Notes under the pieces: generated by a model | Databases searched by the model: none | What the model was told of the DNA's origin: nothing | What the model saw: only the letters and a program-made list of their open reading frames with translations | Sequence record: CP099787.1 | DNA: 64,000 nucleotides | Strand: one strand, 5' to 3' | Source of the DNA: a plasmid | Program-made: the position numbers and the translations under genes | Shown here: in pieces, positions 300-46,719 of the stretch | Position numbering within the stretch: position 1 is the stretch's first letter | How the letters are laid out: the number at the start of each line of letters is the position of its first letter

Positions 300-839
300 T
301 TATAAATTATTTTTCATAACCGAGTAAGTATATAACTGCTCCCAAGCCTCTAGTTTTAAAAACATCAGTGCTTTTTCATATGTAGCACCCTTAATATACA
401 TCCCTCCATCCTTGATCAATCCCTCTGACAAATTTTTCTCTATTTCATTTTGAGGTTCTAAATGCTCTTTTTTTAGGAAATCAATATGTTCTTGAATCAC
501 TAGGTTAAAGTTAATGCCTATATGGTTTAATCTTTCAGTCTGACTTAACTGATCATCATTTAAATCATAAGTAGTTAAAAAAGCTATCTCCTTGCTTCTA
601 GCTACATTATGTTTTGCTACCGCAATGTAAAGTGAATGGCCTGTGACAATATTTGTGATTTTAGAATAATATGATTCAGGAAAATCTTTAATCAATTTCT
701 TAGCATTTGGATCTGTTGGCAAATTTTTATAATTTAGTTCTACAAATAGATAATTGTTTTTAAAACTTCTGTTTAAATTCATTTTCATACTCCATAAGCT
801 TTTCAGCTCATCTATAGAAACCAGCCTATCCGATTTCAC
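300..839 (-). CDS. hypothetical protein; true start probably ATG near 788 (MKMNLN...). The ORF-track N-terminal extension reads through the conserved 5' UTR hairpin
   Basis: UTR hairpin plus SD GGAG then AUG at about 788; upstream region is repeat copy A. Confidence 0.5.
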   Translation of the reverse strand: MKSDRLVSIDELKSLWSMKMNLNRSFKNNYLFVELNYKNLPTDPNAKKLIKDFPESYYSKITNIVTGHSLYIAVAKHNVARSKEIAFLTTYDLNDDQLSQTERLNHIGINFNLVIQEHIDFLKKEHLEPQNEIEKNLSEGLIKDGGMYIKGATYEKALMFLKLEAWEQLYTYSVMKNNL

Positions 840-844
840 CCCTT

Positions 845-885
845 AATTATACTACATTTCATGTCTTTTTATTAAGAAAAAACAT
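845..885 (-). promoter_or_regulatory. sigma70-like promoter, -10 TAGTATAAT (plus-strand 847-855); predicted TSS at the conserved GAAAUCGGAUAGGCUGG
   Basis: Perfect TATAAT read on the minus strand; the same -10 box recurs at 11366, 15268 and 20710. Confidence 0.5.
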
Positions 886-923
886 ATATTTAGTGTATTT
901 TTTCGTGTTATAAAAGACATTTG

Positions 924-1102
924 CAGAGCAACGTGTCCACGTTGCGAACTGATGAAATTTGCGAGCATCCCCCTCCTTGATTACCGTTTCAAACTTCGAG
1001 CGAGTCAGTCAAAATCTGTGATTTTGACTAGACGACCGAAGAAGTGAAACTTCTCCCATTGGACCTTATCCGGTAATAACAAAGCAATCCCGCAGGGTTG
1101 CG
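924..1102 (-). repeat. Repeat copy A of the ~180-bp structured leader element; the extended A/C homology block spans about 796-1170
   Basis: Near-identical to 12964-13142 and 15358-15527; contains perfect hairpins GCAACGTG/CACGTTGC, GTCAAAATC/GATTTTGAC and GAAGT/ACTTC. Confidence 0.85.
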
Positions 1103-1404
1103 ACAAATAGCCCTCTAAATCGCTCTAATTGCCCCTAGATTCAATTTTAAAGATAAACAGCATCCGATCATGCTGCGTTAGGGATGTTGCCCGTAAGGGG
1201 CGAAATACAAGCGTAAAAAAAGAGGATTTGAATCGAGTATTAAAATCAGGTTCAGGCTTTGCATGAAACTAGATTTTAAACTCGATGGATCCTCTTTTTC
1301 GCTTGGAGTTCGAGCGAAGCCAACTAGCCCGGCCCGTAGGGAACGCCAAAATATTTCCAACAGATATTAAATTATTGTGAAGACACCTGGCTAATTACCA
1401 CACA

Positions 1405-1944
1405 CTAAAGATCATGAATTTGTTTCTGATACCAAATTTTGTTTTCGGCTAGAGCTTGATTGAGACGTTTATTTTTAACTAAATCAAGTATTTCCTTTTG
1501 CTCATGATAGGTTATAAGATTGTCTATCTTTGCTTTATTAATTATTTCTCTTACGTCAGGTTCATTCTTGTATTTTTCATAATAATGATTCGAAATTAGA
1601 TCTTCCATTGCATCGTTTGAGACAGGTTTTTTTGCTAAATAATTATCTACACATTTTTTTAATGGTTGTGTATCTACACTTGATTTCAAGACATACCTTG
1701 TTTCCTTATTTAATTCAATTTTAACAAGCGAAAGTTGACTGATATTAATTACATCCATGCAATTATCGTAAATTTCTGAACTTAATTGATCAATTTCTAG
1801 CGACTCAATCGGATAATTGCTTGCTACATAATCTTTTATTTCTTTTTCTACAACCAATTTTTTTAAGGTATTAAGACTATCTTTTGTCATACAACCAGAT
1901 AATATCGAAGCAATGGCGATCATTACAGCTAGTTTTTTCATCAA
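1405..1944 (-). CDS. lipoprotein (lipobox LSGC), paralogue of the next gene
   Basis: Signal peptide plus Cys; C-terminal block similar to 1991-2554 (CVDNYLAKKPVS... vs CVDDYLVKTPIS...). Confidence 0.55.
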   Translation of the reverse strand: MMKKLAVMIAIASILSGCMTKDSLNTLKKLVVEKEIKDYVASNYPIESLEIDQLSSEIYDNCMDVINISQLSLVKIELNKETRYVLKSSVDTQPLKKCVDNYLAKKPVSNDAMEDLISNHYYEKYKNEPDVREIINKAKIDNLITYHEQKEILDLVKNKRLNQALAENKIWYQKQIHDL

Positions 1945-1990
1945 ATTCTCCTAAAGCTCTTCAGCTCTTTAATGCTCTGATAAGCTACTT

Positions 1991-2554
1991 TTAAAGACTT
2001 TGAAAGTCATGTTGGTATGCAGCTTTACCCAAATCAATTTCATGGTCGTAATGTTTCTTCAACACTAGTCCAAGTATTGTCTGGTATTCATAATAGCTGA
2101 TTAAATGATCAGCTTTAGCGTTATCAATTAACGAACGTACTTCAGGATCATTTTTGAATTGCTCAACTCTTGTATCCTCTTTCAGATTTTTCATTGACTC
2201 TTCTGAAATTGGGGTTTTTACCAAATAATCGTCAACACATGATTTGAGATCATTAATATTCACATCTTTATCTAAAACATATTCAGACTCGATACTTCTG
2301 ATAGATAATTTAACCCTCTGTTTCTTGATCATCCTTTTATTAATATTCAAATATTTACTACAAGTACTATATATCGATGGAGTTACATTTTTTATGTCGC
2401 TTATTACAATCATCGAATATTGATCTTGAAGGTACGTATTGATAGTTTTTTCTACAATTTCTTCTTTTGCAAAAGCAAAATCTTCGTCACTCATGCACCC
2501 GGATAAAGCTAATACCAGGGCAAATATTAGAGGTATATTTTTCATCAGTATCAC
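1991..2554 (-). CDS. lipoprotein (lipobox LSGC), tandem paralogue; start likely ATG at about 2545
   Basis: Signal peptide plus lipobox; similarity to 1405-1944. Confidence 0.55.
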   Translation of the reverse strand: MILMKNIPLIFALVLALSGCMSDEDFAFAKEEIVEKTINTYLQDQYSMIVISDIKNVTPSIYSTCSKYLNINKRMIKKQRVKLSIRSIESEYVLDKDVNINDLKSCVDDYLVKTPISEESMKNLKEDTRVEQFKNDPEVRSLIDNAKADHLISYYEYQTILGLVLKKHYDHEIDLGKAAYQHDFQSL

Positions 2555-2625
2555 CTTAAGCCTTAGAGCTCCAGTATGAAAATTAAGTCCTATCTAGACT
2601 GATAAGACCTATTTAAAGCTGAACA

Positions 2626-3174
2626 TTAAATTTTTTTATTTGGCCTAATAACAATTTGAGCCAAAGTATCCTGGGATCTATCAATTATGTTTTCGGAAAT
2701 ATTCAATACTTTTAAAGCCTCAAGTCCAAAATAACTTCTCACATAATTATTCCCGTCAGATGTTGTTAAGAATCTTAAAGTGTCAATTGCAGCAACAAAA
2801 AAGAGTATCTGAAAAGTGATTTCCGCTAATTGCCCTAAATAAGCATAACGTTCATGATTTGATGCGCTTTCTAACGCACCAACAATTTTCTGGATATCAT
2901 CAAAGGGAATCATAATTGAGCAACATAGAATACCCATGATGAAAAAAGCAGGAAGGAGTTCAAGGCATTTACTAAAAGCATTCAGAAAATGCATCACTAA
3001 TGGCCAAACATGTTTTTTTAAAAAAACTAAATCCGTATAAGCCTTCTTTACAATACTGAAGTATTCTTTAGCAGATAAAGTTCCAACAATTTCATTATTG
3101 AAGTCAACAGCATAGCTAAATTTAGATTTATTCATAACCTCTCCATAAGCCCTTCGGCTCGTTAAATAATTCAA
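2626..3174 (-). CDS. membrane protein; true start likely about 3132 (MNKSKF...)
   Basis: Hydrophobic segments; UTR hairpin plus SD inside the track's N-terminal extension. Confidence 0.45.
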   Translation of the reverse strand: MNYLTSRRAYGEVMNKSKFSYAVDFNNEIVGTLSAKEYFSIVKKAYTDLVFLKKHVWPLVMHFLNAFSKCLELLPAFFIMGILCCSIMIPFDDIQKIVGALESASNHERYAYLGQLAEITFQILFFVAAIDTLRFLTTSDGNNYVRSYFGLEALKVLNISENIIDRSQDTLAQIVIRPNKKI

Positions 3175-3804
3175 TTATTTATTATCAACTTTTTCACAGT
3201 ATGCTTTGATCTTTGCAAAGTCTTTATTTGATAGGTTTTCAATGTCATTAGACTTATGACCATTCTCTTTTAACCAGGTTTTGCAATCGACAACGATTTC
3301 TTTTGTTTCAACTGAAGAGTTTGATGCATGACTATTTGAAGAGCCGGACACGATCCAAGCTAACAACATCCAAGTCATCCAATCATTTGAAGATTTATAC
3401 TTTTGATGTTGTTCATGTTTAAATCTATCATAGCTGCTTAGGCTATTATTTTGCACCGGATACGGTTTTTGAACAGCTTGTTTTACTTCAGTACTTTTCA
3501 CTACCGGTTTAACTGTTTTGGTTGTCGGATTAGATTTGGAGGTGGTATTAGCCACTGGTTTATATGTGGTGGTTGCTGAAGGTTTAGAAGGTGTGTAGCT
3601 TGGTTTACTTATGCTACTACTTGGTCGAGAAGTATAGGAGCTCGGAGAGCTTGAAGAATATGATTTACTACTCGATGATGATGAATACGAGCTTCTGCTT
3701 GATGAAGAGCTGTAACTAGATCTAGAAGCAGCATAGCTGGTAGAAACTAATGTTGAAACACTTAAACCAACTACAACAGCTTTAATAAAATAATTAATTT
3801 TCAT
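3175..3804 (-). CDS. secreted Ser/Tyr-rich low-complexity protein
   Basis: Signal peptide, then SSYSSSSSRSSYSSSSSSKSYSSSSPSSYTSRPSSS repeats. Confidence 0.5.
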   Translation of the reverse strand: MKINYFIKAVVVGLSVSTLVSTSYAASRSSYSSSSSRSSYSSSSSSKSYSSSSPSSYTSRPSSSISKPSYTPSKPSATTTYKPVANTTSKSNPTTKTVKPVVKSTEVKQAVQKPYPVQNNSLSSYDRFKHEQHQKYKSSNDWMTWMLLAWIVSGSSNSHASNSSVETKEIVVDCKTWLKENGHKSNDIENLSNKDFAKIKAYCEKVDNK

Positions 3805-3975
3805 AGGTAATCCTCTTAACTTAATACCCGGTGCATAACATTGAATGATCTATTGGGTTTTCAACTTTTGGATCTAAAATTTGATCACAAAGTGAACAAT
3901 GGTACTTCTCTGCCTTAATGAGAATTTTTTTGACATTCCCGCCTAAGCCTAAAGACAATATGTCTTCTTCCTTTT

Positions 3976-4548
3976 TTACTTCTGGATGCTTTGTTTCCAT
4001 GTAAATGCCTCCTGAGCTTTAATCGAAATATCAAGGTCAACTAATAACAAACTCAATTTATTCTTTGTTGTTCGTAAATCCTCGATACTACTTATTGAAA
4101 TTTCATCTGTTTTATTTTTATCGCTAGTAAAATTACCCATTTTTAAAATTTCAGAAATTTGATTATTAAAATCCCATCTAATAATTAAAATATCATGTAC
4201 TATTAGCTTGTTACTCTTTCTCAATTTTGCCTTAACATTCTCAACATATTCTGGATAAACAGATAATATGTTTATTAGAGTTAAAACCCCATCATCCGTT
4301 AGCTTTCTTGAAAGATCCTCAATTTTATTAATCTTTATCATAAAAGTTGCAAAAGTTAATCCAGCTAAAGCAATTGAAGCTAGTTTCAAGGTATATGTGA
4401 CTTCATCTATAAAAAAATTCTGATTAAATGCGAATATTAAAAATACTATTGACACCAATATTGCGAGCCAATAATTATTCAACAATTCTTTAAAATTCAT
4501 TTTGAAGAAATCTTTAGATGTAGGAGAATTCAATAATAAATTTTCCAT
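3976..4548 (-). CDS. membrane protein (2-3 TM)
   Basis: ORF with SD AGAGG; hydrophobic stretches. Confidence 0.45.
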   Translation of the reverse strand: MENLLLNSPTSKDFFKMNFKELLNNYWLAILVSIVFLIFAFNQNFFIDEVTYTLKLASIALAGLTFATFMIKINKIEDLSRKLTDDGVLTLINILSVYPEYVENVKAKLRKSNKLIVHDILIIRWDFNNQISEILKMGNFTSDKNKTDEISISSIEDLRTTKNKLSLLLVDLDISIKAQEAFTWKQSIQK

Positions 4549-4552
4549 ATTT

Positions 4553-4810
4553 CTACCTCTTTTTTAAAATTTGACTATTATTTGAAGGGCATACCCAACC
4601 TTTTATTTCAGTTGATGTACCGTCTTTCGGAGAAGTTATATAACCTACTGTTTTATATAAGCATGGCTCACCTTGAGCACTAACTTTAGGCCATAAAGCT
4701 GCTTGGATATGATCAAAATGTTTAATGAAAACAAATATAAAGAAGAGAAAAATAGCTATTATAAAAATAGTAGCTATTTTATTTTCAAAGCAATGTAGTT
4801 CACTTTTCAT
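4553..4810 (-). CDS. small membrane protein
   Basis: ORF preceded by UTR hairpin plus SD. Confidence 0.45.
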   Translation of the reverse strand: MKSELHCFENKIATIFIIAIFLFFIFVFIKHFDHIQAALWPKVSAQGEPCLYKTVGYITSPKDGTSTEIKGWVCPSNNSQILKKR

Positions 4811-4914
4811 GAGAACACCTTAAGCTTTTCAGCTCATCAATCTATTAATACTTTCAGTACCAATAATACAATATATCGGATTATATTTTAATCATTTTAT
4901 TTAAAAATTAATCC

Positions 4915-6195
4915 TTAATTATGCTTATAATATGGCTCAATCATTTTTCTAATTTTATTTCTCAGTTCATATTGCCTTAATTCAGATAAACCGTTAAGTA
5001 TGCCAAAAGGGATTAAAATAAATAAAAACCAATAAACTACGGCTTTATAATAAAAGTTCCAAAAGCCACTAAAATTATCATTCTTTTTTGTGATTCCTAA
5101 AGCATACTCATACGAATACTTAATATCAGGATTAATAGAAAAAGTAATATCATCCCTTTTTAAATCTGCTAACTGCAAAAGTATGGTATAACCTTTTTGA
5201 ATAGCCTCCCTATTCTGTGGTGTCAAAGTTCGTGAACCGTTCAAATATTCTACTAAAACGTCCTGTGATTTATTATATGTTTGAACCGTACTTTCATAAT
5301 TTTTTAGAAAGAATTCTTTGTTATGTTTTCCTATTGTTGAAGAAGGATTTGAACCATTCACCATGTTATAAACATCAAGTGCTGCAAAATGAACTGGTTC
5401 TTTAATTTCGCTTTTATTATCACCTAACGTTAGTAATCCCGCTACAAGAAGAACAAGTACAAAAATTATGACGCAAACATAATTTACTAAAGATAAGTCT
5501 CTGATATTGAATTTGTCATATTTTTCAGGGTCTTTAGAAATTTCTATCAGGGCCTTATTATCACTCTGTAAAGCTTTAATAGAATAATTGGTGTTCCACA
5601 TATCCCCGTGTGTCTTCGCTATATCAAAGTTACCCAATTTATCTTTAGCAAGATTAATAGCCATATCGAAAGACTTAAGGCTTAAGTCATTGTTCACAAT
5701 TTGCAGGCTATTTAAATCATTAAGCTTAGATAGCTTTTTATACTCATCTTCATTATCAGAAGTCAGTTCACTTAATTTCTTTTGTAAGACCTCTCTAAGT
5801 CTTTGACGTAATTCAAAGTTCCTTTGATACTTTTGTTTTTCAGCAATACAACCTTCGATAAGTTCTTTAAGTTTTCGCTCTGTATTTTCATACTGCTTAA
5901 GAATTAAAGGTAGTACATATTTAGCTTTCTGTATTGCTTGTATATGTTTATAAACTAGTTCTTTATCGTAGACGTATAGAATAGATCTCTTACTTTTTTC
6001 AAATTGTTGAAATGTGAATGAAGACATTACGTTAAAGTAATCTTCATGGATTACACCCATTTTATATCCGCAATCTTGTAAGGTCGTAAGGGATTGCGGA
6101 TGACCTGGTAAATCCTGAATTTCACTTAATAATGAGTCTAGTTCGTTTTCATTAATGAAATTTGTTTTTAATGCAGATAAGTACTTAGTGTTCAT
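4915..6195 (-). CDS. hypothetical protein with a central TM segment; possible TelB/KlaC-like partner of the TelA-like gene
   Basis: Position immediately downstream of the TelA-like gene; TM helix; no motif recognised. Confidence 0.35.
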   Translation of the reverse strand: MNTKYLSALKTNFINENELDSLLSEIQDLPGHPQSLTTLQDCGYKMGVIHEDYFNVMSSFTFQQFEKSKRSILYVYDKELVYKHIQAIQKAKYVLPLILKQYENTERKLKELIEGCIAEKQKYQRNFELRQRLREVLQKKLSELTSDNEDEYKKLSKLNDLNSLQIVNNDLSLKSFDMAINLAKDKLGNFDIAKTHGDMWNTNYSIKALQSDNKALIEISKDPEKYDKFNIRDLSLVNYVCVIIFVLVLLVAGLLTLGDNKSEIKEPVHFAALDVYNMVNGSNPSSTIGKHNKEFFLKNYESTVQTYNKSQDVLVEYLNGSRTLTPQNREAIQKGYTILLQLADLKRDDITFSINPDIKYSYEYALGITKKNDNFSGFWNFYYKAVVYWFLFILIPFGILNGLSELRQYELRNKIRKMIEPYYKHN

Positions 6196-6207
6196 AACAT
6201 TTCCCCG

Positions 6208-7311
6208 TTAATCTGCACTGATTTTTAATTGTTGCGGATCCGCAACGACCAGGCTTTTGAGCTGATCATTTAATTGTTGTGCCTGTAATTGTGTTTCTTT
6301 TCGCTTCTGAGCTGAAGTTTTGTTGATTGCCATAACTTCTTCAAAAGCAGTTAATGTATCAAGCTGCACCTTCTGAAGTGTCTCAATATCTATAACTTGG
6401 CGGTTGCTTTGTTTTGCAATATGAATTGAAGTTTCTTTAAAATCTTTCGCGCTTTCTAGAAGTGTTTCATTTGTGAAATTATCAATTTCCTCACCTAATT
6501 GTGAGTATTTCTTTTGATCTAAAATATTCAAGGCCAACATTAATTGTCTTTGCCAGGCTGGAATAGTTAAGCCAGATATAGTTTGGAACTTTTCAATTAA
6601 CGCAATATTATTGTTCTGCAAAAAAGTAATCTGAGGCAACGTTTGTAAGGCACTTAATCTCAACAATTCTAGATCCGTAATACGCTTATCTAAACGCTCT
6701 AAGATTTGTGAATATGCATTTGCTCTTTGCTTTGCTAGATCTGTACCTTCACTGTTAAGTGACTCAATCAAGCCAATAAGCTCATTTTTTTTATATCGAC
6801 CAGCTATGACAGCAAAACCTAGTTGAGTATAAACAGAAATTGTATGCTCAAATAATTTCGTCAAGCTATCATTATTTAATTGCAACCCTTTTTGAGCTTC
6901 TGCTACTTGCAATAAATTATCATTTAATTGTGATTCTACTGTCTTAAATTTAGTAATAAGCCTGTCTTTTGAATTACCAATTTTTGCTAACAGCCCCCCT
7001 ATCAACGGTATATTTGATTTATCACTACCAATGGAAAAGTCTGTTCTTTTTAATTTTACAGTAATATCCGTCATTAATTCTCCCATAACTCCCAACTGAT
7101 CATTAGTAACTAATGACAGCATTTGGTTAGAAAGATCAGCTAACGAATCACGGTTATTAGCCCCCAACTCAAGTACCTTTTGTGGGTTCTTAATTAGATC
7201 TAAGTTTTCAACTATTGCTAAAACTTCATCTTTTCTATCAATATCAAGATCAAGTTTTTCCATTTCATTTTCAATTGAAAATACTTGTGTTGTTAATTCA
7301 TTATTTAGCAT
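6208..7311 (-). CDS. TelA/KlaB-like toxic-anion-resistance family protein (tentative)
   Basis: Size (~367 aa) and coiled-coil-rich composition recalling the TelA family; the 16-bp palindrome lies in-frame at its 3' end (VADPQQ). Confidence 0.4.
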   Translation of the reverse strand: MLNNELTTQVFSIENEMEKLDLDIDRKDEVLAIVENLDLIKNPQKVLELGANNRDSLADLSNQMLSLVTNDQLGVMGELMTDITVKLKRTDFSIGSDKSNIPLIGGLLAKIGNSKDRLITKFKTVESQLNDNLLQVAEAQKGLQLNNDSLTKLFEHTISVYTQLGFAVIAGRYKKNELIGLIESLNSEGTDLAKQRANAYSQILERLDKRITDLELLRLSALQTLPQITFLQNNNIALIEKFQTISGLTIPAWQRQLMLALNILDQKKYSQLGEEIDNFTNETLLESAKDFKETSIHIAKQSNRQVIDIETLQKVQLDTLTAFEEVMAINKTSAQKRKETQLQAQQLNDQLKSLVVADPQQLKISAD

Positions 7312-7346
7312 TTTAAAACTCCTTAAGTCTTACGACTCGCAATTAC

Positions 7347-7625
7347 TCACCAGTTTATTAACTGAAGAAAAAGATTAAACGTTGTAAAGAGAACCATTGC
7401 AATGGTAGAAATTAGAAGAAGCAAAGAGATTGTACTATCATCATCATCACCATAAATCAAAGATATAAAATAAAGTCCAAAGCTAAGTATTATTAGAATA
7501 ATATTTCTAAATACTACTTCGTCCCATATATACCTAATGAAAAATATTAAAGCAGCGTATGCAAGTAGGACGATTAAAACTCCGATCGAGAACCGAAGGA
7601 TTTTGGCAAGTTTTTTCATAAACAC
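7347..7625 (-). CDS. small membrane protein
   Basis: Two TM helices; UTR hairpin plus SD upstream. Confidence 0.45.
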   Translation of the reverse strand: MFMKKLAKILRFSIGVLIVLLAYAALIFFIRYIWDEVVFRNIILIILSFGLYFISLIYGDDDDSTISLLLLISTIAMVLFTTFNLFLQLINW

Positions 7626-7657
7626 CTCAAGCTTTGCAGCTCTACTTTCAACATATT

Positions 7658-7891
7658 TTATTTAACCGGATATACGGGTAATTGTCCTTTTTCACAGCTA
7701 TAGGATCTTCGCTCTTTTACCTCTGAACCAAACTTAACGCTAATAATTTCGTTACCAGCATCATGTTTTAAACGCTTAAGTACTTCTTTTTTACACTCTT
7801 GTTCTGATTGGAACGGTATCGTATAAACAGCATGTTTATTCGGAGAGAAAATATTAATAACCAAGAACCAGGCACTAACCCATTTAACCAT
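7658..7891 (-). CDS. small hypothetical protein
   Basis: ORF track only. Confidence 0.3.
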   Translation of the reverse strand: MVKWVSAWFLVINIFSPNKHAVYTIPFQSEQECKKEVLKRLKHDAGNEIISVKFGSEVKERRSYSCEKGQLPVYPVK

Positions 7892-7905
7892 TTTTTAATC
7901 ACTAC

Positions 7906-9135
7906 TTATAAAGATGACCAATAAACCAACTGCCCAGGTACTTCTTTCTTTTTCCAAAATAAGTTGTCCGGCAAGTACTCTTCACTTAAATAACAAACTG
8001 CGTAAAGTATTTCTGCATAGCAGTGAAGTTTTGTTTCACTTCTTGAATAAGCTGAGAATGTAGGTGTATTTAATAGTGCATAACCGTTTGAAGTAACGGT
8101 ATATTTATGTCTACTATCAACTATGTTTGTTCCATACAATTGCATTGCATAATCTAAAGTATCTGGTTGAAATACAGGAAAACCGGATACATAACGGTTT
8201 CTTAAATCGTCATCTACTGTTTTTGGATCCGCCTCATATAACCAATAGGTATTTTCTGGTACAAAATCACAAATTGATTTCTGATAAACAAGTCCAGTTG
8301 CAATGCGTATATCTTCATTAAGTATATAATTTCGTACTTGATTGGCAGCACTTGGACTCTCACAGCTAATAATTAAATGTAGAGCTAATTTTCCATTGCT
8401 CTGATCAACTTGGCCGACACCTACGTTTGTACGTGTTCTTGGATATTTAATTACTTTCTCACGCACTGAGACATTTTGATTTTTTTCAGTACCAGAAATT
8501 CCAATCGCAAAATCAACTTTTTGGCCTGTCTTTAATTCAACATAATTAAAGAAGCTCGCAATAGATGTGACACTTGGTAAACCTGTTGCTATTAAATTAC
8601 TGCTTAAATTAGCATCATCAATAAAAACAGTTAAACAAAACTCATCATCAGGTAGTTTTGATTTACTAAATTCAATAGGTCTTAAAGTAATTTCAGGTGT
8701 ATTAAAGCTATTAATTTTTCCCTGTGAAATCTCAATTAACTCATTGTAATCAGAAAAGGATCTTTCTCGATCTTCAACTGTTACTTCTAAAAGTGCATTC
8801 CCATAGTCTTTATTTCTCTTATTAAGCTCATAGTAAATCCCAATTGCTGGCATCGGTGTGATTGCAACCGGCCCTAAGTCTTTAAGTGGAATTGAAACCT
8901 GCTTAACTTTAGAATCAACTAGATCAGGAATACCCTTAAACGTTGCACAATTTAATTCCTTAAAACAATTTTTACGCAAGCTTACAGTTTTAGAGCTTAT
9001 ATAGTTTAACGGTATATCAAATTGGATTTCTGCATAGATTGGACTATGCATAGACTTCTTATGGAACAAAGCTGGTGAGTGTGTAGCCTGTTTTGCTGTA
9101 GCAAGGAATTCTTCAGTATTAAAATTAATATTCAT
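7906..9135 (-). CDS. hypothetical protein (409 aa)
   Basis: Long ORF; SD GAGGA; preceded by a 17-codon uORF. Confidence 0.5.
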   Translation of the reverse strand: MNINFNTEEFLATAKQATHSPALFHKKSMHSPIYAEIQFDIPLNYISSKTVSLRKNCFKELNCATFKGIPDLVDSKVKQVSIPLKDLGPVAITPMPAIGIYYELNKRNKDYGNALLEVTVEDRERSFSDYNELIEISQGKINSFNTPEITLRPIEFSKSKLPDDEFCLTVFIDDANLSSNLIATGLPSVTSIASFFNYVELKTGQKVDFAIGISGTEKNQNVSVREKVIKYPRTRTNVGVGQVDQSNGKLALHLIISCESPSAANQVRNYILNEDIRIATGLVYQKSICDFVPENTYWLYEADPKTVDDDLRNRYVSGFPVFQPDTLDYAMQLYGTNIVDSRHKYTVTSNGYALLNTPTFSAYSRSETKLHCYAEILYAVCYLSEEYLPDNLFWKKKEVPGQLVYWSSL

Positions 9136-9136
9136 T

Positions 9137-9190
9137 TTAATCCTCGCTTTTAAATGTAATTAAACACATGTTGCAAGCTAACGATTTCAT
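9137..9190 (-). CDS. 17-codon upstream ORF (MKSLACNMCLITFKSED); its stop overlaps the SD of the downstream gene
   Basis: Carries the conserved UTR hairpin plus SD itself; stop TAA sits within GAGGATTAAAATG of the 7906-9135 gene. Confidence 0.35.
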   Translation of the reverse strand: MKSLACNMCLITFKSED

Positions 9191-9270
9191 AGTTTCTCCT
9201 TAAGCTCTTCAGCTCTATAGCTTTTTGAATTATTAAATAAACAAGGAGGTCGCCCCCCTTGTTAGTTGTT

Positions 9271-10527
9271 TTAAATAAGGTCTTGTTGATTTAAAATAAC
9301 TTGCATACGAGAGTCTTCAACATTAGAAGATGGAACAAATACATGTAATTGCGCCATAGAATCTAAAATAGTCGCCAACTCATTAACTAGTACTGGATAT
9401 TGAATTAAGCTTTTCCACGAAAACAAATTAGCTGTATTTTCATCATTAAAGCTTCTTAAAAAGCCACAAGCTACTGATACTAAGTCTTCATCTTCGCTTT
9501 CTGTTAAATCTAAAATACTGACGTAACTTTCCAAAATACCATTAAAATAAGCTGTCTCAAGCTCTGAAAATGCCTTTTCATTTGCTTGTTTTACAATCTC
9601 TTTTGTTTGCTTTTGAGTAGTAGTCGTAAAAGATTTTTCATCTTTCACTGCTTCAGTATTTTCAACCGATTCTTGAACTTTTGCAGGTTGCTGTAAAGTC
9701 TCTTTAGTTTCGGTAATGAGCTCTTGAGTATTGTCCACTTTACTATCTTCATCTTTTTCACCAGCCTTTGGCGAATTCTGAAGTTCTAAAGATGACTGTG
9801 TTACCTCTGAAGTGCTTGAGGTAATAATTTCACCCTTCAGCTCTTTAGACCATACACGGGCTAATTTTGATGAAATAGCACCTTCATGATCTGCTACTAA
9901 CGCTTTTACTTCTTCTGGATACTCAGCTAATAAGTTTTTAATGATCGTGCCAGTTTCAGCATCATTTACCATTTTATTAGCCATAAGGCTTTTTAGATAA
10001 TCATCTGATTCAAGCAATTGTAATCTTCGAGAAACCCATGTCTTTGACTTATTAATTTCATTAGCTAAATCGTCATAACTATACTTTGGATTCTCTGCCA
10101 CGCCTTCTTCTAGCATCAATTTTAAATTCGTAGCAACTTCAAGCAAACTCATGTCTTTTCTAAATAAGTTTTCTGACATTTTTACTCGGCGTGAACCAAG
10201 TTTGTTATCAATCGTTGCTTCGATAGTATCCAAGTTCAAATGTTTATGAGCTAAATAACGATAATGGCCCATATTAATAATATATTCACCAGGATTATCA
10301 GAATCGGCTCTAACTGAAATAGGCTGAAGTAAACCATCTCTCAAAATAGTATTTGCCAGTTCTTTTACATAATCTTGATCATATTCAAGACGTACATTCT
10401 GAGGATCCAACTTAACCCGATTAAGCGGCAATTTTAGAATTGTGCGGTCAGAGTTATTGTTAGCATTTAAGTTTGCTGAAGTTAATGAGCTATCAACAGC
10501 GTTTAAATCACCTAATAAAGAAGACAT
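9271..10527 (-). CDS. parB: ParB/KorB-like partition and regulatory protein
   Basis: ParB N-terminal domain motifs (LQPISVR, GHYRYLA); long acidic C-terminal half as in KorB; directly downstream of parA. Confidence 0.8.
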   Translation of the reverse strand: MSSLLGDLNAVDSSLTSANLNANNNSDRTILKLPLNRVKLDPQNVRLEYDQDYVKELANTILRDGLLQPISVRADSDNPGEYIINMGHYRYLAHKHLNLDTIEATIDNKLGSRRVKMSENLFRKDMSLLEVATNLKLMLEEGVAENPKYSYDDLANEINKSKTWVSRRLQLLESDDYLKSLMANKMVNDAETGTIIKNLLAEYPEEVKALVADHEGAISSKLARVWSKELKGEIITSSTSEVTQSSLELQNSPKAGEKDEDSKVDNTQELITETKETLQQPAKVQESVENTEAVKDEKSFTTTTQKQTKEIVKQANEKAFSELETAYFNGILESYVSILDLTESEDEDLVSVACGFLRSFNDENTANLFSWKSLIQYPVLVNELATILDSMAQLHVFVPSSNVEDSRMQVILNQQDLI

Positions 10528-10530
10528 AGC

Positions 10531-11304
10531 TTAAACCCCCATTTTCTCTAAAACTAATTGATTAATTTTTTTGATTTTTCGCCCTACATCTTTTGCTGAC
10601 GTTTTATCAATTTTCCATACTGGAACTTGTTGTTCACTTGCATCAGCAATTGCAGATCGATTAGGTATGAAAGCAGTCTTATCAAGCATTAAATGACTCA
10701 GTTGTTTCTGCAATTCATTTAAAGTTGTTTTTTGAGTAACAGAGTTAGCACTAACCATATTTGGAAGCAGCCCTAGAAACTGAATTTTTGGGTTTACTTC
10801 TTTAATTTCTTGTGTGGTATCAATAATACCTCTTAGCCCTAGAATTGAATATTTATCCAATAAAAAAGGAGATAGAGCAAATTCAGAAACTAACAAAGGT
10901 AATCGCTGAAACGGGCCGTCTGTAGGAGGTGTATCAAAAATACAGATATCAAAAAATTCGTTAGCCTTAGCAATATTTGATTTGAAATTACGTTGGTATT
11001 CTTCAACTTTATCTAGCTTAAACTCTTGTTCTGTAGGATCAAAAAGTGATTTTAAACTCTTATTACCTTTAAAAAGAACAAAATATTTATCTAAAGTTTC
11101 AAAGTTTTGGATATCCGTAAATAGACTATGGGTATCTTTAATCTCAACCGCAACTTTACTAAGTGAGAAACCACTATTACCTTGTTTATCCATGTCTACA
11201 AATAGAACACGCATACCGCGCTCATAACAGTAATGTGCCAAATGAACAGCAACAGAGGTTTTGCCAATCCCACCCTTTTCGTTAGTGATTACGATTTTTT
11301 TCAT
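10531..11304 (-). CDS. parA: ParA partition ATPase
   Basis: Deviant Walker A KGGIGKTS; 257 aa. Confidence 0.85.
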   Translation of the reverse strand: MKKIVITNEKGGIGKTSVAVHLAHYCYERGMRVLFVDMDKQGNSGFSLSKVAVEIKDTHSLFTDIQNFETLDKYFVLFKGNKSLKSLFDPTEQEFKLDKVEEYQRNFKSNIAKANEFFDICIFDTPPTDGPFQRLPLLVSEFALSPFLLDKYSILGLRGIIDTTQEIKEVNPKIQFLGLLPNMVSANSVTQKTTLNELQKQLSHLMLDKTAFIPNRSAIADASEQQVPVWKIDKTSAKDVGRKIKKINQLVLEKMGV

Positions 11305-11360
11305 TGTTCTTTACTCCAAGCATTTCTGCTCAATTTTGAAATCAGCCTATCCGATTTCTG

Positions 11361-11400
11361 AATAAATTATACTACTAAAACATACTTTTTTGCAAGAAAA
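11361..11400 (-). promoter_or_regulatory. parAB promoter: -35 TTGCAA, 18-bp spacer, -10 TATAAT
   Basis: Read on the minus strand; the 24-bp palindrome lies about 40 bp upstream. Confidence 0.5.
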
Positions 11401-11435
11401 AGATTAAATTTTATAGCGCCAATTTGTCTTAAATA

Positions 11436-11459
11436 GGTTGTTGCGGATCCGCAACAACC
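11436..11459. repeat. 24-bp perfect palindrome GGTTGTTGCGGATCCGCAACAACC (candidate ParB/KorB operator or parS)
   Basis: Seen directly in sequence; intergenic, upstream of parA. Confidence 0.9.
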
Positions 11460-11496
11460 TAAGCTTGTGTAAGTTACATCTATGCATATAAAAAAA

Positions 11497-12274
11497 TCAA
11501 TCATTAATTAAAATGAAATTAGGCACATAATCTTCAGCTTTATGTACAATTTCCTTTAATTTTTGACTATGCAATTTTATGTCCCACCCTTTTACGTAAT
11601 ACATTAAGCTACACCAGCATTCACGATACTTTAACTTGAGGGTATCACCAACAAAAATACGGCAAGGCACTGCCCACAAACTTAGTTGTATATAACACAT
11701 TAAAGCAACGTTTCTATCAATGTCTGCTGCCTCAATATACAAGTGATCTTGCACTTGTATCTTAGATTCCAAACAGAGTTTTACAGTTGAAAGTAAAGTT
11801 GAGCCAGCTCCACAAGCTGGATCGGAAATCGAAATCACCCCCTCTTCCTCAAGTTGGTTTTTTAAGGTCGGTCATTACAACTTGAGCACATAAATTTGAT
11901 ACCTCACTTGGTGTAAAATATTGGCCGATATGATCATTCCCAATTTCTAATTCCATGTAAATGCTACCTAACACATCATATGGCTCACCCTTTGCTTCGC
12001 ATAAATCCACCAACAGATAAAACAATTTTTTTATTTTTAAACGTCCACTAACGTCGTAACGATTGATACGTTGAAGATATTCATTTTCAATATTGTGGTT
12101 AAACAAATTTTGATATCTATGACCAATTGAGTTTCTTAATGCTGCTGCTGAACAAAAAACAAAGTCATGAAATATTTCATAAATGTTTTTAGATTGGTCG
12201 ATACTTTTTAAGGTATGTATAAACTCACTTTTCAAAACACTATAAGTTTTACCAATGTTAACTTTTGAATTCAC
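11497..12274 (-). pseudogene. N6-adenine DNA methyltransferase remnant (HsdM/gamma-class), frameshifted and 3'-truncated
   Basis: GQYFTPSEV (motif X) and DPACGAGSTLL (motif I) in two ORFs split at a C5 run around 11836-11840; ends after GDTL with no NPPF/NPPY motif. Confidence 0.55.
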
Positions 12275-12302
12275 TTTTTTCTCCGCAAGCTCTTCAGCTC
12301 AA

Positions 12303-12800
12303 TCAATTAATAGTTTTCAATGTATTGAATTGTATAAAACCATTTAAACCGGCTTTACGAAAAGTTTCTAAGACTTTGAAATACATTAATTGGAAATTAA
12401 GAGACTCATCTGCTGTTTTAGTGAATTCTCCCAAGTGGTCAGGTCTGAATAATATATCTGCGTTATTATTAAACCAGGTCAAACATTCAAAAATGAAGTC
12501 ACCATAGAACTCATATGTTTCTTGAATAGCGGTTAAGAAAGGACAAGGAATACCAATCAATTCTTCAAGAACTTTTAATGTTGAAATAAACTTATTAAAT
12601 GACTCTTTTGTACTTAATGTATAAACATTAAAGTCCTTACAATCATACATAGTAGTAGATAAGGCAACTAAGCCAGTATTGTATTCAAAAGATGGCTTCA
12701 TAATATCAATATGGCCAACAGCACATGCACAATGTGATGGAGTCTTTAAACGACCAATTTTTAAATCAGTTATGATTAATACATTAAAATAATTATTCAT
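12303..12800 (-). CDS. hypothetical protein (165 aa)
   Basis: ORF with UTR hairpin; leader carries repeat copy B. Confidence 0.45.
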   Translation of the reverse strand: MNNYFNVLIITDLKIGRLKTPSHCACAVGHIDIMKPSFEYNTGLVALSTTMYDCKDFNVYTLSTKESFNKFISTLKVLEELIGIPCPFLTAIQETYEFYGDFIFECLTWFNNNADILFRPDHLGEFTKTADESLNFQLMYFKVLETFRKAGLNGFIQFNTLKTIN

Positions 12801-12963
12801 TTTTTCACCATAAGCTTTTCAGCTCAAAATACGAAATCAGCCTATCCGATTTCTAACCCCAAAATTGTAATACAATGATGTATTTTAATCAAGATCTTTA
12901 AACGTTAATATTGTTAAAAAACATTAATTTAATGAAATATATTTTCGAATTAAACATTACTAA

Positions 12964-13142
12964 CAGAGCAACGTGTCCACGTTGCGAACTGAAGGAATTT
13001 GCGAGCATCTCCCTACTTGATTACCGTTTCAAACTTCGAGCGAGTCAGTCAAAATCTGTGATTTTGACTAGACGACCGAAGAAGTGAAACTTCTCCCATT
13101 GGAGCTTATCCGGGAGTAACAAAGCAATCCCGCAGGGTTGCG
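12964..13142 (-). repeat. Repeat copy B of the ~180-bp structured leader element
   Basis: About 95% identical to copies A and C over the core. Confidence 0.85.
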
Positions 13143-13282
13143 CTTCTAAATTGCGAATCTAATTGATTTTAGGTTCATCCACTCTAGTTAATTAATGGAA
13201 CTGACAGCATTTTTTAATATTCTAGTGTGTTAGGGATAGATATACTTACCTACACCTACTTTAAAAATCACATAACACATGT

Positions 13283-14075
13283 CTAAGCTACATTCGCTTG
13301 GTTAAACATATTTAAGATATCAATTGCTGAAGTATTTTGACGAAAAAAAACTCTATCAGGCCTGCCTGGTTGATTGTTAGTTTGCCCGTGGATCCTTTCC
13401 ATTCGTAAATGAAACTCTAAAGCAAACGGATTTGATTCAAGCTGCTTCAATAATTTTGGAAATGATTTCTCAAAACACATATTACAATTTCCATCCCATT
13501 CATTTAGCTCTAGATCAAACGCTTGCTTTGACCACCAATCTAATATGAATTGCTTATCCACTGGATGTTCTGTGACTAATGGATAAATAAAGTTATTTGC
13601 TTCTGCATCCTTAGCACAACGTTTAGATTCATCAGCCCGGATACCGATTGCAGTAGGGATATCTTTAGGTTTCATCCCAATACTACGAATATATGAATCC
13701 ATTGGTCTTATTTTTAATTCACGGGTGCAATGCTTATAAACTTTATTAGGAATTCCGTATTTCTCAATCATCTGTTCAAAAAGTACTGGCCCCCTGGTAG
13801 CTGTCTTAAAATTGACAACTTTATGCGTCGTACCTACTCTTTTTTTAGGGTGAATAACTTGCTTCTAACCAAACTGTATTGAAATTAAAATATTTATCAC
13901 ATTTATCGACAAACTCTAAAGTTTTCTCATGCTCAATGCCTGTATTTGCAAATGTGACTATAAAGTTATAAAGGTGGCTATAGTTATTAAGCAAGTACCA
14001 GGTTAAATATGCTGAAGTACGTCCACCACTAAAGCTAATTTGATAATATGATTTCATTAATTTCACCTTAAGCAT
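13283..14075 (-). pseudogene. PAPS-reductase-like PP-loop ATP pyrophosphatase split into two ORFs (13845-14075 and 13283-13771)
   Basis: SFSGGRTSA P-loop in the N-terminal ORF; CTRELKIRP and GIRADES in the C-terminal ORF; T7 run at about 13848. Confidence 0.55.
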
Positions 14076-14328
14076 TTCTGCTCGAATCTCAATTGTTTTA
14101 GCCTTTTATAATTTTTAATCTGAACCGCATCCCTCTTTATTAAAGGCCCCCATAGGTAGCTCCCAGTTTTTTGTAAATATAGGCAAGGTATATTCTTTTC
14201 TCATTGCCTGATCCAAAGCTACTAAATCATTGATATTAAAAGGCTGAATACCCTCACTTATATTTATGACATTGATTTTTTTTCGACTAATTGTAGTTGC
14301 AAATTGTTCTTCGTATTTAAAAATTCGA

Positions 14329-15207
14329 TCAATACGATTGGGAAAATAATGTTTGATGGTTTGCCCAAACTTTCGGGCTATTATAGATACAAGTCATACA
14401 GCTTGATCTCGACCATCCTAAGCGATATGGTACTGGCGCTGCGACATTATGACGCTCTAAAATTTCCCACACTTGACGTTCTGTAAAATCAAGAACTGGT
14501 CGATATGCATCAATTAGACGACCTTTTTTCCCATTACGATTATCACAAAAATGTGTTTCTAATTGGAAGTATTTTGCTCGATTAGGACTTTCTTCTCGAC
14601 GCTCTCCAGTAACAAATAAAACTTTAGAGTTATTAAAACGCTCCTGGTTTGATAAAGCTCTACGCCCTACCTCGATCTTCAGAGCTGAAGAACACCATCT
14701 AATACGGAGATCTGCTGATTGTTGAGGAAACCGCAATCTCGTTCCAGCTTTTGCTCGTTTTCTTGGAATAATGATATTCCCACTCGGTGTTTCAATCTCA
14801 TATTCATGGCTTATGGAATTATTTTTTAGCATCTCCCCCTCGAAGCCATGCATTAACCAGCTATTATAAATTGGTAAATTAAATGCTTTGGCAAGCTGTT
14901 TGTTGTAGCTATCCATAAACAGCCAATCCATAAACGGCTCACTCTTACCGTCAACAAGGTTATGCCACAATTCAACCTTTGACATGTCCACGCCTTTCTC
15001 TATTAAATAGAGCAAAGAAGCAATACTATCTTTTCCGCCACTCATACTGACGATAATTAAATCATAAATATCTAAATCTATTTCTGAGACAGAGAACAAC
15101 TTACCTTCAGATGCAAGTGCCTGTCCTATAGCATTTTTTAATACATTAGGAATAACATTCACATCATCATGTCTATCAAGCTCTTTATATAAAGCATTAT
15201 TTTTCAT
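14329..15207 (-). CDS. PAPS reductase family (PP-loop) protein
   Basis: SGGKDS P-loop and ERREES motif. Confidence 0.7.
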   Translation of the reverse strand: MKNNALYKELDRHDDVNVIPNVLKNAIGQALASEGKLFSVSEIDLDIYDLIIVSMSGGKDSIASLLYLIEKGVDMSKVELWHNLVDGKSEPFMDWLFMDSYNKQLAKAFNLPIYNSWLMHGFEGEMLKNNSISHEYEIETPSGNIIIPRKRAKAGTRLRFPQQSADLRIRWCSSALKIEVGRRALSNQERFNNSKVLFVTGERREESPNRAKYFQLETHFCDNRNGKKGRLIDAYRPVLDFTERQVWEILERHNVAAPVPYRLGWSRSSCMTCIYNSPKVWANHQTLFSQSY

Positions 15208-15357
15208 TCAATTCACCTTAAGCTTTTCAGCTCATATATAGAAACCAGCCTACCCGATTTCACCCCTCAATTATACTACATTTTCATGTCTTTTTATTAA
15301 GAAAAAACATATATTTAGTGTAATTTTTCGTTTTATAAAATACTTTTGCAGAGCAAC

Positions 15358-15527
15358 GTGTCCACGTTGCGAACTGATGAAATTTGCGAGCATCCCCCTC
15401 CTTGATTACCGTTTCAAACTTCGAGCGAGTCAGTCAAAATCTGTGATTTTGACTAGACGACCGAAGAAGTGAAACTTCTCCCATTGGACCTTATCCGGTA
15501 ATAACAAAGCAATCCCGCAGGGTTGCG
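15358..15527 (-). repeat. Repeat copy C of the ~180-bp structured leader element; extended homology with copy A spans about 15213-15600
   Basis: Near-identical to 924-1102. Confidence 0.85.
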
Positions 15528-15719
15528 ACAAATAGCCCTCTAAATCGCTCTATTTGCTCCTAGATTCAATTTTATAGAAACAAGGTAGCCTAACTACCAA
15601 AGAAATAAAACATGGCTAGAATTAACAAATATGATCAAAAACAAAATTAAACTTGTAATATTTTTTGTATATAAATTAAATAAATCACATATAATAAATT
15701 ACTGAAAGGAGGATTTGTT

Positions 15720-15926
15720 ATGGGATCTACAGTACGTCTCCGGGATCCAACAGCTCAACTTGTTATGGATACCGCATTAGATATGCAACAAGAGCAACGT
15801 CAAATGGTTAAAACTTCAGATATTGTTGAAACATTGGTTCAAAGATATATAAAGACAATTAGCTTTGAAGATGTTCAACAAACTATTGAAAATCGCAAAA
15901 AGAATAAAAAAAATAAGGACAAATAG
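15720..15926 (+). CDS. small protein with strong SD AAAGGAGGA; possible transcriptional regulator or antitoxin-like
   Basis: Only plus-strand gene in this region; basic C-terminus. Confidence 0.4.
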   Translation: MGSTVRLRDPTAQLVMDTALDMQQEQRQMVKTSDIVETLVQRYIKTISFEDVQQTIENRKKNKKNKDK

Positions 15927-15931
15927 AAAAC

Positions 15932-16168
15932 CTATTTGCCCTTATAAATTGTGTCAAACTCTGTCAACCAATCAAGCCTGTTAAAACCGGCTTCAACTTC
16001 ATTGCCTCTTACATCTGCAATATAAAATTTCTTCTTACCATCTTTAAGAAACCATCCAGCTAATATATTTACATAATTACTCTTACAGTTCAGAACTCTC
16101 ATGTAAGCATCCGGTGCAGCAGGATGAGCTGGATCAACATGCTCAAGTTGAGGATCAACGTTACTCAT
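15932..16168 (-). CDS. small hypothetical protein
   Basis: ORF track. Confidence 0.35.
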   Translation of the reverse strand: MSNVDPQLEHVDPAHPAAPDAYMRVLNCKSNYVNILAGWFLKDGKKKFYIADVRGNEVEAGFNRLDWLTEFDTIYKGK

Positions 16169-16172
16169 TCAA

Positions 16173-16880
16173 TCAACTCAAGAAAATCTTTTTCGTTTCA
16201 TTAGGATCAATAGCATGATGTAAGTTCACCTTACTCCCGTCCGAATACCCTTTTACTCGTGCTTGATTAAGCATATCTTTATTATAATGTTTAACACTTT
16301 TAACTTCGCAATATATAAGATTAAGAGTTTTCTCATATTCGCTCAGTTTTTCCTTTAGCTCTTTATCTGGATTTAAGTTCCTACACTTTTTTTCAACTCC
16401 AAGAATCCACCCTCTATGATAGCTTATGCCTAAACGTCTCTTAGATTTAAGTTTAGTATTTCCATGTAAAGTGGCTAAATAACTTTGTTTATTTTTAATC
16501 AAAATAGGGAGTAAAACAGTATATGCATATGTTGCAATAGACACATTTGGTTCAACTCCATAAAAAACATGTTGTTGATATTTCACACCTTCTAAAGTGT
16601 AAAAACCTGAGTAACTTCCGCATTCAAAGACATTTGCGATCATTACTTTAAGCCGTCTTTCAATATCTTTAGTTCTTTGAGTTTTTGTCTGAATAATTCG
16701 CTCTTTAATATCACTAATTAGTATCTGTTTTTCACTTATTTTGTACTTCTGCATCAATGTCTGTGCTTGCTTAAGTGCAACGGCTGCTTCATGCTCATTG
16801 GCACTTTTTGATAATGCTAGGCACTTACTAATTTTATCTATGATAGTTTGCATATCTTCCATTTTTGGCTCCTTAAGCAT
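16173..16880 (-). CDS. conserved plasmid hypothetical protein; start likely about 16861 (MEDMQ...)
   Basis: UTR hairpin plus SD. Confidence 0.45.
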   Translation of the reverse strand: MLKEPKMEDMQTIIDKISKCLALSKSANEHEAAVALKQAQTLMQKYKISEKQILISDIKERIIQTKTQRTKDIERRLKVMIANVFECGSYSGFYTLEGVKYQQHVFYGVEPNVSIATYAYTVLLPILIKNKQSYLATLHGNTKLKSKRRLGISYHRGWILGVEKKCRNLNPDKELKEKLSEYEKTLNLIYCEVKSVKHYNKDMLNQARVKGYSDGSKVNLHHAIDPNETKKIFLS

Positions 16881-16911
16881 TTCTGCTCAATTAAAATAAG
16901 TTTTAAAGATT

Positions 16912-17716: not shown

Positions 17717-17818
17717 ATGTTTTCCTTCTTAATCAATTAAATAAATTACTATCAATTTAAGTAATAATTTTTGGAAGAATTAAATCAAAATGGAATCTTT
17801 TTAATTCTTCCTTATCAA

Positions 17819-18007: not shown

Positions 18008-18019
18008 ATTTTGATCCTT

Positions 18020-18367: not shown

Positions 18368-18376
18368 TAATTACTT

Positions 18377-46710: not shown

Positions 46711-46719
46711 AAGTTAATC

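Follow-up and report, generated by a model that had tools for sequence, protein, structure and literature searches.

The window analysed here, a stretch of 64 kb from the plasmid record CP099787.1, raises the question of why a non-coding sequence of about 180 bp stands in three copies (A, B and C) ahead of three unrelated genes, and whether it acts as RNA, as double-stranded DNA or as single-stranded DNA (ssDNA). A first-pass annotation had described it as a portable cis-regulatory leader rather than a mobile element, i.e. as RNA in the 5' leaders of the genes (a riboswitch, an attenuator or the target of a small RNA (sRNA)). We find that it is indeed a portable, structured, non-coding cis element and not a transposon, but that its assignment to RNA leaders is not borne out. 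Its fold is supported by covariation, and in three plasmids of the MOBF type nearly all copies lie, in one orientation, in the region close to the origin of transfer (oriT). Our tentative reading, to which we give a chance somewhat short of even, is that of a DNA-level signal acting on the single-stranded plasmid, resembling single-strand initiation (ssi) sites or ssDNA promoters and specific to the genus Acinetobacter.

Copies of the element and their plasmid setting

Both a repeat search and blastn detected three copies in the window, and a sensitive profile search (nhmmer --max) also returned exactly three. Their cores are 96-98% identical, in agreement with the ~95% given by the first-pass annotation, although the core of copy C starts at 15349 and not at 15358. 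Copies A and C share 363 bp at 96.7% identity, close to the ~370 bp reported earlier, and the 179-bp core of copy B is 96.1% identical to A and likewise to C. Beyond its core, copy B retains a weaker match to the part corresponding to the 5' untranslated region (5'-UTR); the flanks it has in common with the other copies are far shorter than those shared by A and C. A fourth copy, located outside the window, has 561 bp in common with copy A. This block includes the tail of copy A, which had been considered an extra feature of that copy; the tail is unique within the window but belongs to a duplication and is therefore not private to A. It consists mainly of terminator-like hairpins, namely a long U-tailed hairpin at 1297-1214 and a second terminator-like hairpin at 1176-1157. 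The tail also contains GGCTTCGCTCGAAC (1308-1321, minus strand), which matches the 3' arm of hairpin P2 of other lineages and may be what remains of another copy, now decayed. Some of the copies carry promoter, UTR and first codons with them; the shared blocks are 179, 363 and 561 bp long.

As the first-pass annotation had stated, neither terminal inverted repeats, as judged by repeat search at the element ends, nor target-site duplications or a transposase were found, and no open reading frame (ORF) inside the element is conserved among the copies compared. A 36-aa ORF located 3' of the AAGGAGG tract of copy A was rejected as coding; it is truncated in copy B and lacks its start codon in pNDM-BJ01. 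A DnaA-box-like TTATCCGG was likewise dismissed as a feature of the element, being confined to the RepAci6 copies. The proteins encoded downstream of A, B and C, two hypothetical proteins and a protein resembling 3'-phosphoadenosine 5'-phosphosulfate (PAPS) reductase, are unrelated to one another, as had been noted before.

The window is part of a RepAci6-type conjugative resistance plasmid of Acinetobacter baumannii with a MOBF relaxase and a type F mating-pair formation system (MPF_F). It is most similar to pDETAB7a, which measures 72 kb, comes from A. baumannii and combines a RepAci6-type replicon with a MobF relaxase and an MPF_F transfer system; the two differ by 8 mismatches and 5 indels across 21.4 kb. 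The 8 kb that are present in the complete plasmid and absent from the window carry oriT and the fourth copy of the element. In total, 365 plasmid records match the region, almost all of them from Acinetobacter and many 99-100% identical; 351 are predicted to be conjugative. A search of a phage collection with the window yielded zero matches, and we classify its DNA as plasmid, not phage.

Homologues of the core (window positions 925-1111) with 71-78% identity reside on other Acinetobacter conjugative plasmids with differing relaxases and secretion systems, i.e. pNDM-BJ01 (MOBQ/MPF_T), pAR2 (MOBP/MPF_T), pBJ83 (MOBF/MPF_F) and, in the form of partial copies only, small MOBQ plasmids. Across these unrelated backbones, nothing but the core is kept, and the flanks diverge entirely. 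Contigs from genomes and metagenomes were scanned for the pattern and then with nhmmer, which brought together 65 unique copies, and those with a taxon label are nearly all located on Acinetobacter contigs. Pattern hits on four genome contigs from other phyla (Deinococcus, a Bacteroidetes metagenome-assembled genome (MAG), Pseudomonas and a Butyrivibrio MAG) and at 31 of the 70 metagenome pattern loci, where nhmmer remained silent, were discarded as chance matches. The occurrence in MOBF, MOBQ and MOBP plasmids together with the confinement to Acinetobacter would fit a signal that is recognised by an enzyme of the host. A known Rfam family, which the first-pass annotation had named among the outcomes that would refute its own reading, did not emerge: Rfam 15 gave nothing at gathering score across the whole window and nothing but noise at E<=10 on the three copies. 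No earlier description was found in the literature searched. The element is an undescribed structured family absent from Rfam, and this holds even if it should turn out to be an RNA or a boundary element.

In pNDM-BJ01-type plasmids, two inverted copies (L002 42758-42942, plus strand, and 46531-46715, minus strand) flank a 3.6-kb operon beside traD and oriT, and the traD-adjacent position is seen again in several diverged lineages. The pair could allow inversion to take place, or it could mark start and end of an early transcription unit.

Table 1 Location of the element, its parts and associated features. Positions refer to the window unless an L label precedes them.
Feature	Position	Strand	Remarks
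Copy A, core	924-1104	-	Repeat search, profile search, homologue alignment; block common with C spans 792-1153
Copy A, P1	1101-1084	-	Parts listed in gene-sense order
Copy A, P0	1075-1054	-	
Copy A, P2	1050-986	-	Loop ACA at 1019-1017
Copy A, invariant GGTAATCA	985-978	-	
Copy A, purine tract AAGGAGGG		-	Follows GGTAATCA
Copy A, P3	945-928	-	
Copy A, tail	1140-1400	-	3' region of upstream gene; also in fourth copy of the complete plasmid
Copy B, core	12964-13142	-	blastn, profile search
Copy C, core	15349-15529	-	Block common with A spans 15216-15578
Predicted promoter after copy A	846-875	-	TTAATA-18-TATAAT; 48 nt past P3
Predicted promoter after copy B	12864-12892	-	TTGATT-17-TACAAT
Predicted promoter after copy C	15270-15300	-	TTAATA-19-TATAAT; coordinates by offset from homologous L001 copy
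Predicted promoter, pNDM-BJ01	Downstream of core		TTGTAC-17-TATAAT
Predicted promoter, pAR2	63-92 nt downstream (gene-sense) of copy L003 19619-19810		TTGAAT-17-TATAAT
5'-UTR hairpin GAAATC...GGTTTC	817-837	-	Downstream of promoter; travels with repeat; in copy B at 12833-12853
Translation-initiation motif GAGCTGAAAAGCTTATGG	792-809	-	Small hairpin plus Shine-Dalgarno; in copies B and C at 12808-12825 and 15216-15233 (-)
Putative oriT nic region	L001 11544-11566	+	Just past the window end; ~3.2 kb ahead of window position 1 on the circular map
MobF relaxase and type IV secretion system coupling-protein genes	58275-63722	-	DNA transferred last

A multi-hairpin fold supported by covariation

The fold derived from covariation comprises several hairpins and is dominated by P2, an imperfect hairpin of 31+31 nt. 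In 16 diverse copies, 91.4% of the pair cells are occupied by standard pairs, compared with 38-48% when the partners are slid. Changes on both sides were found for 23 pairs (81 cells), and none of 500 shuffles reached the observed covariation. The structure of the element is thus far above chance, and the comparison of collected homologues that had been proposed along with the leader hypothesis, now comprising 65 copies, backs a multi-hairpin fold through compensatory changes. In P2, 26 of the 31 positions per arm are paired, the ACA loop is invariant and the bulges are conserved. On its 3' side, in gene-sense order, follow the invariant unpaired GGTAATCA and a purine tract. The remaining helices are smaller: P0 is a short hairpin and P3 a 7-bp hairpin, P1 looks terminator-like and is replaced in type II copies by a canonical terminator (ACACCC-attaa-GGGTGT plus a T-run), and P4 is poorly supported, with 64% of its cells paired.

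All hairpins listed in the first-pass annotation occur in the sequence, but not all of them withstand comparison. Between 16 and 65 homologues back GCAACCC/GGG(A)TTGC (P1), GTCAAAATC/GATTTTGAC (top of P2) and GCAACGT/ACGTTGC (P3), whereas the local GAAGU/ACUUC hairpin is not conserved; the partner of ACTTC is a GAAGT about 45 nt downstream, within the long hairpin P2. An outer stem ATTACC/GGTAAT, suggested by single-sequence folding, is present in copy A only, shows no covariation and was rejected.

RNAalifold, applied to a mixed alignment based on hidden Markov models for both strands, recovered P2d and P3 only and did not discriminate between the strands. The z scores are -3.7 to -5.5 for the plus strand folded as DNA and about -2 for the RNA fold, and the copies rank among the most structured 200-nt segments on the plus strand of the leading 24 kb. 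Wobble pairs were counted in helices with at most one non-Watson-Crick pair, i.e. in 2255 pair cells, of which 2171 are Watson-Crick pairs, 9 are G·T on the gene-sense strand and 40 are A·C, equivalent to G·T on the plus strand. Counted as distinct events, 5 G·T face 15 A·C (binomial p=0.04), which favours the plus strand. The G·U share on the gene-sense strand amounts to 0.4% of the pair cells. Structured RNAs usually hold several percent of such pairs, and their near absence argues against an RNA in gene sense. Note, however, that a similar excess is seen in unpaired columns (12 G>A changes versus 5 C>T), so that the preference for the plus strand may result from mutational bias and is no more than suggestive.

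The core lies between a terminator-like hairpin and a predicted promoter

In four lineages a sigma-70-like promoter is predicted 42-100 nt downstream of P3, and terminator-like hairpins are situated directly upstream of the core. Judged by these predicted signals, the core is not part of the vegetative 5' leader: a terminator-like hairpin precedes it and the promoter of the gene follows it, which puts it outside the vegetative transcripts. It is here, together with the scarcity of G·U pairs, that the earlier placement in RNA leaders lacks support. A systematic scan of 65 contexts revealed no conserved promoter belonging to the element itself on either strand. Leader features at the RNA level are plausibly restricted to the hairpin between promoter and start codon and to the Shine-Dalgarno-proximal motif (Table 1). 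In contrast to the core, the 5'-UTR hairpin of copies A and C contains a U·G pair when read on the gene-sense strand. The hairpin of copy B is perfect, stands ahead of a T-rich tract and was classed as terminator-like, so that it may act as an attenuator.

Expression data for vegetative cultures of strain AB5075 provide weak, circumstantial support for the reading as a single-strand signal. The genes right after two copies do not appear among the listed entries, which extend down to at least ~27 transcripts per million (TPM), and ParA, ParB and H-NS are found in the same listing at 74-97 TPM. The main texts of the AB5075 RNA papers and the supplementary entries listed there contain no plasmid sRNA.

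Orientation and position relative to conjugative transfer

The putative nic region consists of the inverted repeat GCACC-GTTA-GGTGC followed by GTGGTGTGT; it lies upstream of a trwA-like gene and the coupling-protein and mobF genes, and the motif is also present in pBJ83 and p1AB5075. A GCACC-N4-GGTGC repeat with adjacent GTGGTGTGT is the arrangement of the nic regions of R388 and F, i.e. of MOBF oriTs. From the position of the motif it follows that the plus strand of the window is the transferred strand. Positions 1 to ~21000 enter the recipient early, and the genes in this part are on the minus strand and hence have the transferred strand as template. F-like plasmids arrange their leading regions in the same way (PMC11541004). 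In three MOBF plasmids, 10 of the 11 copies have their template version on the transferred strand, at a distance of 2-23 kb from nic. Template orientation and a leading-region position, both expected of an ssDNA promoter of the Frpo/ssi type, were found in these MOBF plasmids. No nic motif that would fix the transferred strand is recognisable from sequence in the MOBQ and MOBP plasmids.

The genes downstream of the element are of the establishment or anti-restriction type. Across the contexts they encode ArdC, J-domain proteins, DUF6573, PAPS-reductase-like proteins and, as second gene, an orphan methylase, along with many proteins of unknown function.

A proposed signal on the incoming single strand

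Location, strand, fold and covariation of the element, and the position of its core outside the predicted vegetative transcription units, are shown here. Known ssDNA promoters of the Frpo/ssi type are repeats of the leading region that fold on the incoming strand and are silent as double-stranded DNA (PMC9849209, PMC11541004, PMC12672017), and several unrelated sequence classes of them have already been described (PMC12672017). We propose a similar function here because the element is repeated in the leading region, folds on the incoming strand and precedes unrelated establishment genes. During conjugation, the plus strand of the window would enter the recipient 5' to 3' from oriT, and each copy on it would fold into P2 flanked by the smaller hairpins. 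The folded duplex and the invariant junction, in which AACT and TGATTACC flank the hairpin base from opposite sides, would then recruit host RNA polymerase or primase, and RNA synthesis would begin in the direction of the 5' end of the strand. The outcome may be early expression of establishment genes (those for the orphan methylase, the PAPS-reductase-like protein, J-domain proteins, ArdC and others), the provision of primers for the complementary strand, or both, before ordinary double-strand promoters could work. It is the recruitment of RNA polymerase or primase and the early expression that we infer.

Several details of P2 are consistent with such a role. Its arm length of 31 nt equals the span from -35 to -7 of a promoter. 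About half of the structural types have TTGACT or TTGTCG close to the loop, on the arm that would take the part of the non-template strand. Invariant bases are concentrated at the foot of the hairpin, which is where the strands would melt and initiation would take place.

A number of points weigh against this proposal, among them the possible mutational bias in the wobble count described above. The would-be -10 box, 16-17 nt downstream of the -35-like hexamer, reads nnAACT (GAAACT, GCAACT or TAAACT); its T at -7 is invariant, but the critical A at -11 is missing from most lineages, and the hexamer itself is restricted to the said half of the structural types. A comparison with Frpo1/2 and ssi1-3 showed no homology, as nhmmer gave no hit at E<=100 and blastn only chance words of 8-16 nt. 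The orientation is not uniform either: in pNDM-BJ01-type plasmids, one copy directly after traD has the opposite orientation, faces the operon end and has no gene downstream, further copies in opposite orientation precede the topA/type IV secretion system operon of pAR2 and an Abi gene of pBJ83, and the partial copies of the small MOBQ plasmids are antisense to their neighbours.

The dispersed, near-identical copies in the leading region, with the transferred strand as template, resemble Frpo and ssi of F and IncI1 plasmids, and so do the position upstream of unrelated establishment and anti-defence genes, the long imperfect hairpin with an A/T-rich top and the restriction to certain hosts. 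The element differs in being ~180 nt long and AT-rich instead of ~330 nt long and GC-rich, and the two have no sequence similarity. Furthermore, it does not rebuild a convincing -10 box, a normal double-strand promoter is located between it and the gene, and some of its copies have the opposite orientation. The RNA-polymerase-dependent single-strand origins, namely the minus-strand origin of f1/M13 and ssoA and ssoU of rolling-circle plasmids, are also orientation-dependent, host-specific folded ssDNA structures of 130-200 nt with conserved unpaired motifs, and they prime complementary-strand synthesis, also after conjugative transfer. They belong to other replicon types, however; their RSB and CS-6 motifs are absent from the element, which in turn is present in multiple copies per replicon. 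With the primase-dependent ssi of the G4 type (R1/R100, ColE2) the element shares clusters of hairpins on one strand. Its only invariant plus-strand CTG overlaps the P2 loop (the closing C and the first two loop bases, TG). CTG is the start triplet of E. coli-type primases. In the element, though, it sits in the loop of three bases that caps a 10-bp stem, and the CTG beside P3 is CTA in one lineage.

Taken further, the proposal would make the element an Acinetobacter-specific family of ssDNA elements with an architecture of its own (P0-P2-junction-P3), unrelated in sequence to Frpo and exchanged among MOBF, MOBQ and MOBP resistance plasmids (RepAci6/OXA-23 and pNDM-BJ01/NDM-1 types), which launches early expression or priming on incoming DNA. 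As copies occur in both orientations, either strand might serve, so that the element could also work after natural transformation or at the vegetative origin. We consider this extended version possible, but somewhat more doubtful than the general one.

Alternative explanations

In principle, the element could be transcribed together with its neighbours and function as an RNA in gene sense, be it as a leader, a stabiliser in a 3'-UTR, a processive antiterminator or a processing signal. Co-oriented genes flank most copies on both sides, the orientation follows the upstream gene in nearly all contexts, and the copy on pNDM-BJ01 begins only 20 nt past the traD stop codon; candidate helix P4 has G·U pairs on the gene-sense strand, and the RNA fold departs from random expectation (z about -2). 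Structure, conservation and a position upstream of genes are also what the element has in common with cis-regulatory RNA leaders. The core nevertheless follows terminator-like hairpins and precedes the predicted promoters, hence lies outside the predicted vegetative transcript, G·U pairs are outnumbered by A·C, the downstream genes are unrelated and form no linked family, Rfam contains no match, and P4 itself is poorly paired, which leaves this explanation unlikely. We regard it as equally unlikely that the palindromes form a double-stranded boundary element, comparable to repetitive extragenic palindromes (REP) or bacterial interspersed mosaic elements (BIME), that serves as terminator, insulator or binding platform for a KorB-like ParB, H-NS or gyrase. 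Here, the constant position between transcription units, the terminator-like P1 with its canonical substitute in type II copies, and P3, a near-perfect 18-bp palindrome 50-100 bp upstream of promoters, would fit. Palindromes are placed likewise upstream of promoters in the class II KorB operators of RK2. The plasmid does encode a ParB with a KorB domain as well as H-NS, and the wobble pairs do not clearly prefer either strand. The element shares with REP and BIME the intergenic, palindromic and multi-copy nature and the location at operon boundaries, but it is plasmid-specific, far more complex and equipped with invariant unpaired joints. Moreover, P2 is long and irregular with conserved bulges and occurs in many different sequences, unlike a protein operator, the element is also found on plasmids without a KorB-like ParB such as pNDM-BJ01, and its strong orientation bias in MOBF plasmids would be needless for a symmetric double-strand site.

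The excess of wobble pairs on the plus strand could also point to an antisense sRNA read from that strand, in which the invariant unpaired pyrimidine tract CCCTCCTTGATTACC would act as an anti-Shine-Dalgarno seed, and one weak plus-strand promoter is indeed predicted beside copy B. Against this stand the lack of a conserved antisense promoter at a fixed distance in 65 contexts, the lack of a terminator on the plus strand and the lack of a plasmid sRNA among the entries listed in the AB5075 tables; we consider such an sRNA improbable. The differing boundaries of the copies (179, 363 and 561 bp), with promoter, UTR and first codons travelling along with some of them, would be compatible with promoter regions duplicated by homologous recombination, the hairpins having no function of their own. 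This appears still less probable, as it is the core alone that unrelated backbones retain, at 71-78% identity and amid divergent flanks, and its pairs are preserved by compensatory changes. Finally, a multi-copy, non-coding sequence of ~180 bp might suggest a miniature transposable element (MITE), the reclassification that the first-pass annotation had foreseen in case terminal inverted repeats and target-site duplications were found. Neither is present, the ends are not fixed but differ between copies, and the occurrence is confined to plasmid intergenic regions, so that this explanation is effectively refuted.

Further observations on the surrounding sequence

The motif GAGCWGAAAWGCTTAAGG, a small hairpin AGCW-GAAA-WGCT fused to a Shine-Dalgarno sequence, is present in 17 copies in the window, compared with 0.22 expected by chance, and lies immediately 5' of the start codons of many unrelated genes; the translation-initiation motifs of copies A, B and C (Table 1) are among the 17. 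Thirteen of the sites are located at 792-20693 on the minus strand and four at 54536-56560 on the plus strand. It looks like a common translation-initiation or processing signal of the plasmid genes. The spacer of the promoter predicted for pAR2 contains a perfect palindrome, GTCCACAGGTGGAC, which is probably an operator for a plasmid repressor.

In comparison with pDETAB7a, the genes for the orphan N6-methylase, the PAPS-reductase-like protein and their neighbour are each split into two ORFs in the window (11497-12274 and 13283-15207), due either to real frameshifts or to assembly errors. Just upstream of copy C, a 68-aa ORF (phrog_5219; 15720-15926, plus strand) runs antisense to its neighbours. 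According to the listed entries of a published RNA data set, its homologue on p1AB5075, ABUW_RS19120, reaches a very high level of ~1000 TPM in vegetative AB5075, and its RNA is found in chimeras with that of the chromosomal gene ABUW_RS11870 (PMC11472050). The ORF could encode a regulator or be a player at the RNA level.

Implications for plasmid establishment in Acinetobacter

RepAci6 and pNDM-BJ01-type plasmids spread the carbapenemases OXA-23 and NDM-1 in Acinetobacter. To our knowledge, the plasmids in which single-strand promoters have been demonstrated all belong to the enterobacterial IncF and IncI groups. If the proposal of a signal acting on the incoming single strand is correct, the element would add a class with a new sequence and structure to a type of signal already known, and would do so in a plasmid group of clinical importance. 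Common to three unrelated conjugation backbones of Acinetobacter, it offers a testable handle on early establishment. It points to genes that may be the first to be expressed after transfer, to a possible target for blocking transfer and to a probe by which leading regions could be located in unannotated plasmids.

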